Shown piece by piece: positions 6,413 to 6,604 of a stretch of DNA of 64,000 bases. The notes beneath the pieces were generated by a model. It was not told the origin of the DNA and did not search any database. It saw nothing but the letters and a program-made list of their open reading frames with translations. The stretch's first letter is position 1; each line of letters begins with the position of its first letter. Made by a program: the position numbers and the translations under genes. The DNA is from Rhizodiscina lignyota. Its lineage: Eukaryota. Location: assembly GCA_010015805.1 (NCBI GenBank), contig ML978126.1, forward strand, positions 1,674,001 to 1,738,000, in the 5' to 3' direction.

Positions 6413-6604
6413 CTATCTCGCAGTGATTGGCCCCACCTTTGGGCTCCTCGCAGTGATTGGCCCTACCTTTGGGCTCCTCGCAGTGATTGGCCCCACCTTT
6501 GGGCTCCTCTTCCCGATATTCGCCGCATCCACTGGGCCAAGTTGGCAGTAGCCAACGGCCGCAAAAGCGGAAATGATGAACGCGAAAAGAACTGACGTCT
6601 TCAT
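6413..6604 (-). CDS. Secreted repeat precursor peptide (KEP / fungal RiPP precursor-like), 63 aa
   Basis: MKTSVLFAFIISAFAAVGYC (signal-peptide-like), QLGPVDAANIGKR (Kex2-type site), (SPKVGPITAR)x3, TAG. The differences between repeats (GTG/GTA, AGG/AGA) are synonymous in this frame. An ATAAATA element lies ~110 bp upstream. Adjacent to three HxxHC-type genes. Confidence 0.85.
   Translation of the reverse strand: MKTSVLFAFIISAFAAVGYCQLGPVDAANIGKRSPKVGPITARSPKVGPITARSPKVGPITAR
6416..6505 (-). repeat. 3 x 30-bp tandem repeat encoding SPKVGPITAR
   Basis: The plus-strand unit CTCGCAGTGATTGGCCC(C/T)ACCTTTGGGCTC is seen three times. Confidence 0.95.

Follow-up and report, generated by a model that had tools for sequence, protein, structure and literature searches.

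Structure of the 6413-6604 reading frame

The DNA analysed here, called the window throughout, is a 64,000-nucleotide stretch of the Rhizodiscina lignyota genome (contig ML978126.1, positions 1,674,001 to 1,738,000). A short open reading frame (ORF) at positions 6413-6604 of its minus strand encodes a candidate precursor of secreted repeat peptides, and three paralogous genes, numbered 1 to 3, are packed into 4 kb beside it (Table 1). The translation opens with a hydrophobic N-terminus, runs on to the sequence NIGKR, and then gives three identical copies of SPKVGPITAR, with the stop codon immediately after the third. Tandem Repeats Finder reports the underlying DNA repeat at 6417-6509 (period 30, 3.1 copies, 96% matches, score 179), which is the top score among the 16 tandem-repeat rows of the whole window. 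The contigs of sequencing run X1, which looks like genomic DNA, break at the repeat but are otherwise continuous and show no joints.

Table 1. Positions of the precursor, its parts, the neighbouring genes and the homologous precursor.
Feature	Positions	Strand	Remarks
Precursor ORF	6413..6604	-	63 aa + stop; ATG-to-stop reading
Signal-peptide-like N-terminus	6551..6604	-	residues 1-18; hydropathy and (-3,-1)-rule heuristic only
Pro-region	6506..6550	-	residues 19-33; ends in dibasic IGKR
QLGPV element	6524-6544	-	within pro-region; conserved: QLGPV in each of 4 L004 units
Three 30-nt units	6416..6505	-	SPKVGPITAR each; joined at I-T-A-R/S-P
Region between divergently oriented precursor and gene 1	6605..7214		610 bp; presumed shared upstream region, from coordinates
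Gene 1 (P0001)	7215..7967	+	235 aa; 'hypothetical protein' of R. lignyota; N-terminal membrane helix; HxxHC at residues 156, 187
Gene 2 (P0002)	8192..8992	-	266 aa; paralogue; HxxHC at residues 213, 243
Gene 3 (P0003)	9679..10448	+	230 aa; two exons; paralogue; degenerate motifs HVQQC, YILYC
L004 homologous precursor	5560-5925		121 aa; metagenome contig

Residues 3-17 form the predicted signal stretch, with 9-residue Kyte-Doolittle means of up to 2.8 by this heuristic. The (-3,-1) rule offers two candidate signal-peptidase sites, AFA/A after residue 15 and AVG/Y after residue 18. The leader contains three Phe, one Tyr and one Cys. Apart from the signal peptide's hydrophobic core, Tyr and Cys occur only in the pro-region, which also carries the single dibasic site. 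Downstream of that KR there is no Phe, Tyr, Trp, His or Cys. KR precedes unit 1 only, and units 2 and 3 are preceded by T-A-R. The original prediction, made from the window alone, had described an aromatic-free core with one KR and T-A-R/S-P at the remaining junctions, and the translated ORF bears out both descriptions.

The same prediction had seen a resemblance between QLGPVDA of the pro-region and KVGPITA of the units. Aligned without gaps, the two segments have a BLOSUM62 score of 21. Shuffling residues 1-33 reached this value in 14 of 5000 trials, and shuffling residues 16-33 did so in 11 of 5000. Their likeness therefore exceeds what composition alone would give, and QLGPV recurs beside IGPIDA in the homologue described below. 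The 63-residue protein has no entry in the protein collection that was searched. Because its three neighbours are present there, the ORF appears to be unannotated in R. lignyota.

Homologous precursor and its loci in metagenomes

A metagenome scan with a 12-sequence alignment of the neighbour family yielded 38 loci, which represent 27 independent groups. One of these loci, L004, carries a homologous precursor, and L028 is its 99.5% identical twin. The L004 protein follows the plan of the window precursor: a signal-like start, one KR, and four units (TLVTKQLGPVAEEDIGPIDAR) with the short spacers SIQAR and SVKAR between them. Its last unit ends in GPIDA, with a stop codon in place of the Arg codon. 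Every L004 unit contains QLGPV and IGPIDA(R), so that QLGPV and [IV]GPI[T/D]A(R) are common to the two precursors. BLASTP aligns the window ORF with the L004 protein at 28.1 bits (E 2e-6 in this single comparison). Phe, Tyr, Trp, His and Cys are absent from the entire L004 protein.

The three window units differ at two bases, and both differences are synonymous in the SPKVGPITAR frame. Read in the EEPKGGANHC frame, the same two change the amino acid, and a stop interrupts the remaining minus-strand frame. The L004 units, which share 76-79% DNA identity among themselves, are far more informative. Their single-base codon differences comprise 40 synonymous and 2 non-synonymous changes in the proposed frame, compared with 1:35, 0:36, 7:35, 31:5 and 0:36 in the other five. 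Both non-synonymous changes lie in the spacer (SIQAR to SVKAR), where [IV]-x-A-R is retained. The 40:2 ratio thus indicates strong purifying selection on the peptide. Whether orthologues conserve another frame, such as EEPKGGANHC, had been raised earlier as a check; when this was run, the homologue was found to keep the proposed frame. The coding frame is thereby decided, since L004 retains the QLGPV and [IV]GPI[TD]A(R) reading with this ratio. Judged by this comparison, 6413-6604 is a real, coding gene.

One alternative is a minisatellite that codes for nothing and is open in this frame by chance. It would account for the fact that three frames are open across the repeat and for window units that differ at only two bases. 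Against it, the reading frame begins with ATG and a signal-like sequence and stops right behind unit 3, as suits a gene, and the synonymous bias and shared motifs of the homologue, like the conserved gene neighbourhood, also speak for a gene. This explanation is very improbable.

The surroundings of the precursor are also retained. In L004, copies resembling P0001 and P0002 lie 2-4 kb from the precursor, and a canonical UstYa exon (PF11807, 57.9 bits) lies 1.8 kb from it. Identity to the window genes is 55% (best segment) for gene 2 and 26% for gene 1. L004 and L018 have the gene order UstYa, precursor, P0001-like gene (minus strand) and second copy (plus strand) in common, and the window holds the same module minus the canonical UstYa gene. 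The L018 units, such as SMASGPVAEEVTKSYEKR, have GPVAEE in common with L004, are joined at KR and contain Tyr. Across the scan, PF11807-positive ORFs (35-69.6 bits) share a locus with the neighbour family in 9 of the 27 independent groups, and a coding tandem-repeat ORF occurs in 4 of the 11 groups that span at least 6 kb (L004, L018, L019 and L038).

Several details of these loci deserve mention. In L018, the segment 1801-2300 (minus strand) has a clear start of signal-peptide type (MKFTSLVAAAILAFTATAWA) in a frame shifted by one from that of the repeat ORF, an arrangement that could reflect an error in the contig, a pseudogene with a frameshift or unusual splicing. L019 carries at 4933-6636 a long 69-nt repeat that is open on both strands, with KR-flanked units ending in PPWYRASTASTAEGVEKR in the minus frame. 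The plus-strand ORF of this repeat, with A-R/YHGG junctions, was considered as a second case of A-R junctions and rejected; the synonymous to non-synonymous ratio is better in the minus frame, at 244:74, than in the plus frame, at 225:126, and the plus frame is probably an antisense artefact. The L019 minus frame runs without a stop into a region that has two more HxxHC-like motifs (HQYHC and HVIHC) and no Pfam match. L038 has a 78-nt repeat at 10194-10433 (plus strand; 2.6 copies) with units containing QYINY...VPPSKR. It lies near a pair of P0001-like and second-copy genes and a PF11807 exon, and no in-frame start codon or signal was found for it. Beside or inside the L004 peptide locus, 1471-2649 (minus strand) encodes a protein with DUF2278 and lamin-tail domains, and 6141-7373 (minus strand) an ankyrin-repeat protein.

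The double-HxxHC neighbour family

The 250-residue ORF of gene 1 matches a 'hypothetical protein' of R. lignyota at 100% identity, and the paralogues of gene 1 show 21-26% identity to it. Genes 1 and 2 each encode two HxxHC motifs 30-31 residues apart, and gene 3 has no intact HxxHC. An N-terminal membrane helix is predicted for all three proteins from 19-residue Kyte-Doolittle (KD19) maxima of 2.9, 2.06 and 2.1, the first at residues 43-61 of gene 1. The structure model of gene 1 has a helix at residues 39-65, with a mean predicted local distance difference test (pLDDT) score of 75.7. The products are thus likely to be membrane-anchored with a lumenal domain. Gene 3 retains the Cys pattern of the family but only one of the four motif histidines, and is probably a non-catalytic paralogue.

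Profile searches show that the family is large: it numbers 2117 cluster representatives at E<=0.001, of which 1382 remain at the stricter E<=1e-10. The Atlas clusters closest to gene 1, which are leads only, are from Ascomycota. When a profile search was used to find names, it returned four proteins, all of them 'hypothetical protein' or unnamed. An alignment of 60 members shows no variation at H156, C160 and C191, and conservation of 90% or more at H159, H187 and H190. A conserved pattern of its own, comprising C-x-C-G, E-A, G-C and W-x-P-x-x-C, marks the lumenal N-terminal half. A sequence search of solved structures gave no match to the family at E<=10. With the neighbour model as query, none of 110 Foldseek matches reached E<=0.001, and VIA-align gave a best Z of 3.6 with none at 5 or above. 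Three of 59 relatives (P0012, P0034 and P0038) show weak DinB_2 (PF12867) matches over the HxxHC region, at E 7.6e-4 to 0.068, which hints at a metal site built on His.

The family resembles UstYa/DUF3328 (PF11807) proteins in its membrane helix near the N-terminus, in its two HxxHC motifs with a spacing of 30-31 residues, in being confined to fungi, and in forming clusters of paralogues with a repeat precursor. The 30-31-residue Cys-Cys spacing matches that of a canonical UstYa ORF. Sub-threshold PF11807 matches occur in 14 of the 59 relatives, at 13-21 bits (best 21.0) against a gathering cut-off of 25, and 12 of these 14 align to profile positions of about 113-175, the stretch that bears both motifs. 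In contrast, no member tested reaches the gathering score, and the lumenal N-terminal pattern is distinct. A tblastn search of the window with a canonical UstYa exon gave no match. A relationship between the two families is suggestive, not proven.

Other features of the window lie farther from the precursor. An 18-nt repeat (14367-14428, 3.4 copies) within 14144-14650 falls in a small ORF beginning MAKFWNKIK that has YEAHDS-like units; it has no Pfam match, and the opposite strand is also open. An ORF at 43360-44214 (minus strand) with a PD-(D/E)XK nuclease (PDDEXK_12) match contains a 33-nt repeat at 43894-43992 (3 copies, score 156). A multi-exon gene for a major facilitator superfamily transporter (PF07690) occupies 20100-22000 (plus strand), about 10 kb from the precursor. 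Genes for a fungal transcription factor, a short-chain dehydrogenase/reductase and a glucose-methanol-choline oxidoreductase follow it.

Processing, chemistry and relation to known fungal peptides

These observations can be combined in one model, to which we assign a probability of about 0.6. The 6413-6604 ORF would be an unannotated gene for a secreted multi-core precursor that feeds a UstYa-type, dikaritin-like pathway for a peptide that is made ribosomally and modified after translation (RiPP), with modification that is necessarily non-aryl. A signal peptide would carry the precursor into the endoplasmic reticulum. A Kex2-like convertase would then cleave after each [ILV]-x-[A/K]-R, once at IGKR and three times at ITAR, and a Kex1-like carboxypeptidase would strip the Arg to leave SPKVGPITA or a shortened version of it. 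The products of genes 1 and 2, anchored in the membrane and facing the lumen, are predicted to oxidise the conserved [IV]-G-P-I-[T/D]-A, and the gene 3 product, with its missing histidines, may act as a non-catalytic partner.

Six junction types are found in the window and L004 precursors: IGKR, ITAR, LSKR, IDAR, IQAR and VKAR. In each of them P4 is aliphatic and P1 is Arg, and A-R junctions (ITAR, IDAR, IQAR and VKAR) are conserved across both proteins. The expanded Kex2 motif described in PMC8528282 has Arg at P1 and a variable P2, and prefers an aliphatic P4. The junctions fit this motif as [ILV]-x-[A/K]-R, so that no separate protease has to be assumed for the monobasic sites. The processing scheme of the original prediction is therefore kept in part: cleavage after Arg fits, as an instance of the expanded motif, and a dedicated enzyme for the monobasic sites is superfluous. 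Its removal of the C-terminal Arg is plausible, since the stop that replaces the last Arg codon in L004 suggests that Arg is not part of the product; the Kex1-type step is proposed on that basis. Two other suggestions lose ground. Trimming of SP by an X-Pro dipeptidyl peptidase is not conserved, as the L004 units begin with T-L, and an intact 30-residue product is disfavoured by a spacer that varies and yet keeps its cleavage motif.

The layout of the precursor also recalls that of an alpha-factor-type mating pheromone: behind the signal peptide, the pro-region closes with KR, and the short tandem units open with an X-Pro dipeptide. In a feature search with the L004 precursor, an alpha-factor precursor cluster (MF_alpha) is listed among the look-alikes at 0.82, as a lead only. 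A pheromone is nevertheless improbable here. There is a single dibasic site, the X-Pro start is not kept in L004, and the precursor family adjoins UstYa-type genes in three loci. According to PMC7329392, KEPs (Kex2-processed repeat proteins) annotated as mating factors or pheromones lack DUF3328 genes, with one exception. Other evidence comes from the peptide itself. Ascomycete alpha-type pheromones have a Trp/Cys-rich pattern, which is absent from these units.

The earlier conclusion that any chemistry would be non-aryl is strengthened by the two precursors. With no aromatic residue after KR in either, and none at all in L004, the Tyr or Phe cross-link of the characterised dikaritins is impossible. 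Phomopsin offers the nearest precedent, in the desaturation of its Pro-Ile-Asp tail by UstYa-family enzymes. Its core is YVIPID (PMC7099791), and PhomYc, PhomYd and PhomYe have been assigned to dehydro-Ile, dehydro-Asp and dehydro-Pro, respectively (PMC10880069). The corresponding tail is G-P-I-D-A in L004, where Pro-Ile-Asp itself recurs, and G-P-I-T-A in the window. Hydroxylation or an aliphatic cross-link would be alternatives. QLGPV, which occurs once in the window, in the leader, and in every unit of L004, could be either a second core or a recognition element.

A different substrate is conceivable within the same precursor. The leader segment with Tyr19 and Cys20 (YCQLGPVDA...) might be cross-linked through Tyr as in classical dikaritins, leaving the three repeats as by-products or a carrier. 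Tyr19 may open the pro-region, depending on the signal-peptidase site, and Tyr is present in the L018 units. However, the L004 homologue retains QLGPV without any Phe, Tyr, Trp, His or Cys, selection in L004 covers the whole unit, and no tyrosinase was found among the scanned window ORFs. We consider this substrate improbable.

A number of results weigh against the model of a UstYa-type pathway with an aromatic-free core. Nothing in the data shows that the peptide is modified at all. The P3 Asp of the IDAR junction is described as unfavourable for Kex2 (PMC8528282). Within the window, only two base differences inform the frame, and the same 2:0 score is obtained by an antisense frame with common wobble positions, so that the synonymous test is weak without the homologue. 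The proposal that the neighbours are DUF3328 enzymes is not borne out by Pfam: PF11807 gives no match to genes 1-3 even at E<=10, and they belong to a separate, unnamed double-HxxHC family. Profile comparison by hhalign of A3 with one canonical UstYa exon gives a probability of 4.9% (E 0.008; partial exon), and comparison with seven canonical pieces, which are partial exons, gives 3.0% (E 0.015) with both HxxHC motifs in register. The Pfam scan of the window covered 75 of the 93 ORFs of at least 120 residues, the other 18 overlapping longer ORFs in other frames. Among the 75 there is no PF11807 ORF, tyrosinase, methyltransferase or S41 peptidase, a result that intron-split pieces below 120 residues could escape. 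Finally, no repeat precursor turned up in 7 of the 11 groups that span 6 kb or more, so the neighbour family is not always beside one or such precursors escape the scans used.

Several of these points would equally suit a plain secreted repeat peptide, an effector or signalling peptide of the kind collected as KEPs, which is cleaved at Arg and left unmodified while the double-HxxHC proteins act elsewhere. In the survey of Umemura (2020), 74% of 7878 KEPs have no DUF3328 neighbour and are thought to be linear (PMC7329392). Genes 1-3 have neither a demonstrated activity nor a Pfam assignment, the longer loci often lack a repeat ORF, and the alpha-factor look-alike of the L004 search is a lead in the same direction. 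On the other hand, the precursor occurs together with P0001-like and P0002-like genes in the window, L004 and L018, and canonical UstYa genes are present in the last two of these loci. Such conserved linkage is unusual among unrelated genes, and it makes an unmodified peptide unlikely, if still an alternative to be taken seriously.

The model of a modified, aromatic-free core has its closest parallels in the dikaritins (ustiloxins, phomopsins, asperipin-2a and victorin). In these systems, as in the window, a signal peptide (predicted for the window) is followed by tandem identical cores, processing occurs after Arg in the secretory pathway (likewise predicted for the window), and several paralogous, membrane-anchored double-HxxHC proteins adjoin the precursor. 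The canonical UstYa genes of dikaritin clusters have counterparts in L004 and L018. The differences are equally clear. The characterised dikaritins are cyclised on Tyr or, in the case of victorin, on Phe (PMC9233826, PMC7329392), whereas the window core has neither. Their cores are flanked by dibasic Kex2 sites, whereas the window has one dibasic site and T-A-R junctions that fit only the expanded motif. The original definition of a dikaritin cluster, as quoted in PMC12048977, includes a tyrosinase and a methyltransferase. Two HxxHC motifs in the signature enzyme are a criterion also quoted there, and genes 1 and 2 each have two. Unlike such clusters, the scanned window ORFs offer only neighbours of a separate family that falls below the Pfam threshold.

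KEPs share with the window a secreted tandem-repeat precursor and kexin-type release (PMC7329392). In that survey, 65.6% of the repeats beside DUF3328 genes contain Tyr and about one-third do not. A Tyr-free core alone is therefore not new, as computational surveys already list such repeats beside these genes. A KEP is defined there by at least three repeats of at least 8 residues between KR, KK, RK or RR in an annotated protein. The window precursor falls outside this definition, and the survey could not have detected it, because it has one KR, A-R junctions and no annotation. Epichloecyclins offer a third comparison: their precursor GigA has repeats and a secretory leader and is clustered with DUF3328 and kexin genes (PMC10540207), but the peptides are cyclised on Tyr (PMC6514808), which the window cores lack. 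In the literature searched, which consisted of main texts and not supplements such as the KEP tables of PMC7329392, no paper was found on this precursor, the neighbour enzyme family or a characterised aromatic-free UstYa product.

Three aspects of the locus appear to be new: a conserved and wholly aromatic-free precursor family, single-Arg junctions that lie outside the KEP definition, and a link to a large double-HxxHC family outside PF11807. They correspond to three blind spots of fungal RiPP mining, namely small unannotated ORFs, single-Arg junctions and a large enzyme family beyond the UstYa model of Pfam. To our knowledge, every UstYa-dependent peptide characterised so far is cyclised through an aromatic side chain. 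A conserved aromatic-free precursor would be a clean substrate with which to ask what else UstYa oxidases or their unnamed relatives can do. The two homologous precursors mark the positions under selection, [IV]-G-P-I-[T/D]-A and QLGPV, and a targeted test by mass spectrometry or heterologous expression is therefore straightforward.

A broader interpretation can be offered tentatively. With this locus, a separate branch of fungal ribosomal peptides may have come into view for the first time, in which the unnamed double-HxxHC family, with or without canonical UstYa, acts on aromatic-free aliphatic-Gly-Pro-aliphatic cores. Such precursors would be cut at [ILV]-x-A-R rather than at KR, and their products would carry purely aliphatic modifications, such as dehydro-Pro, dehydro-Ile or an aliphatic cross-link. 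If this interpretation is true, mining rules that rely on annotated proteins, dibasic sites, PF11807 and Tyr would miss the whole branch.
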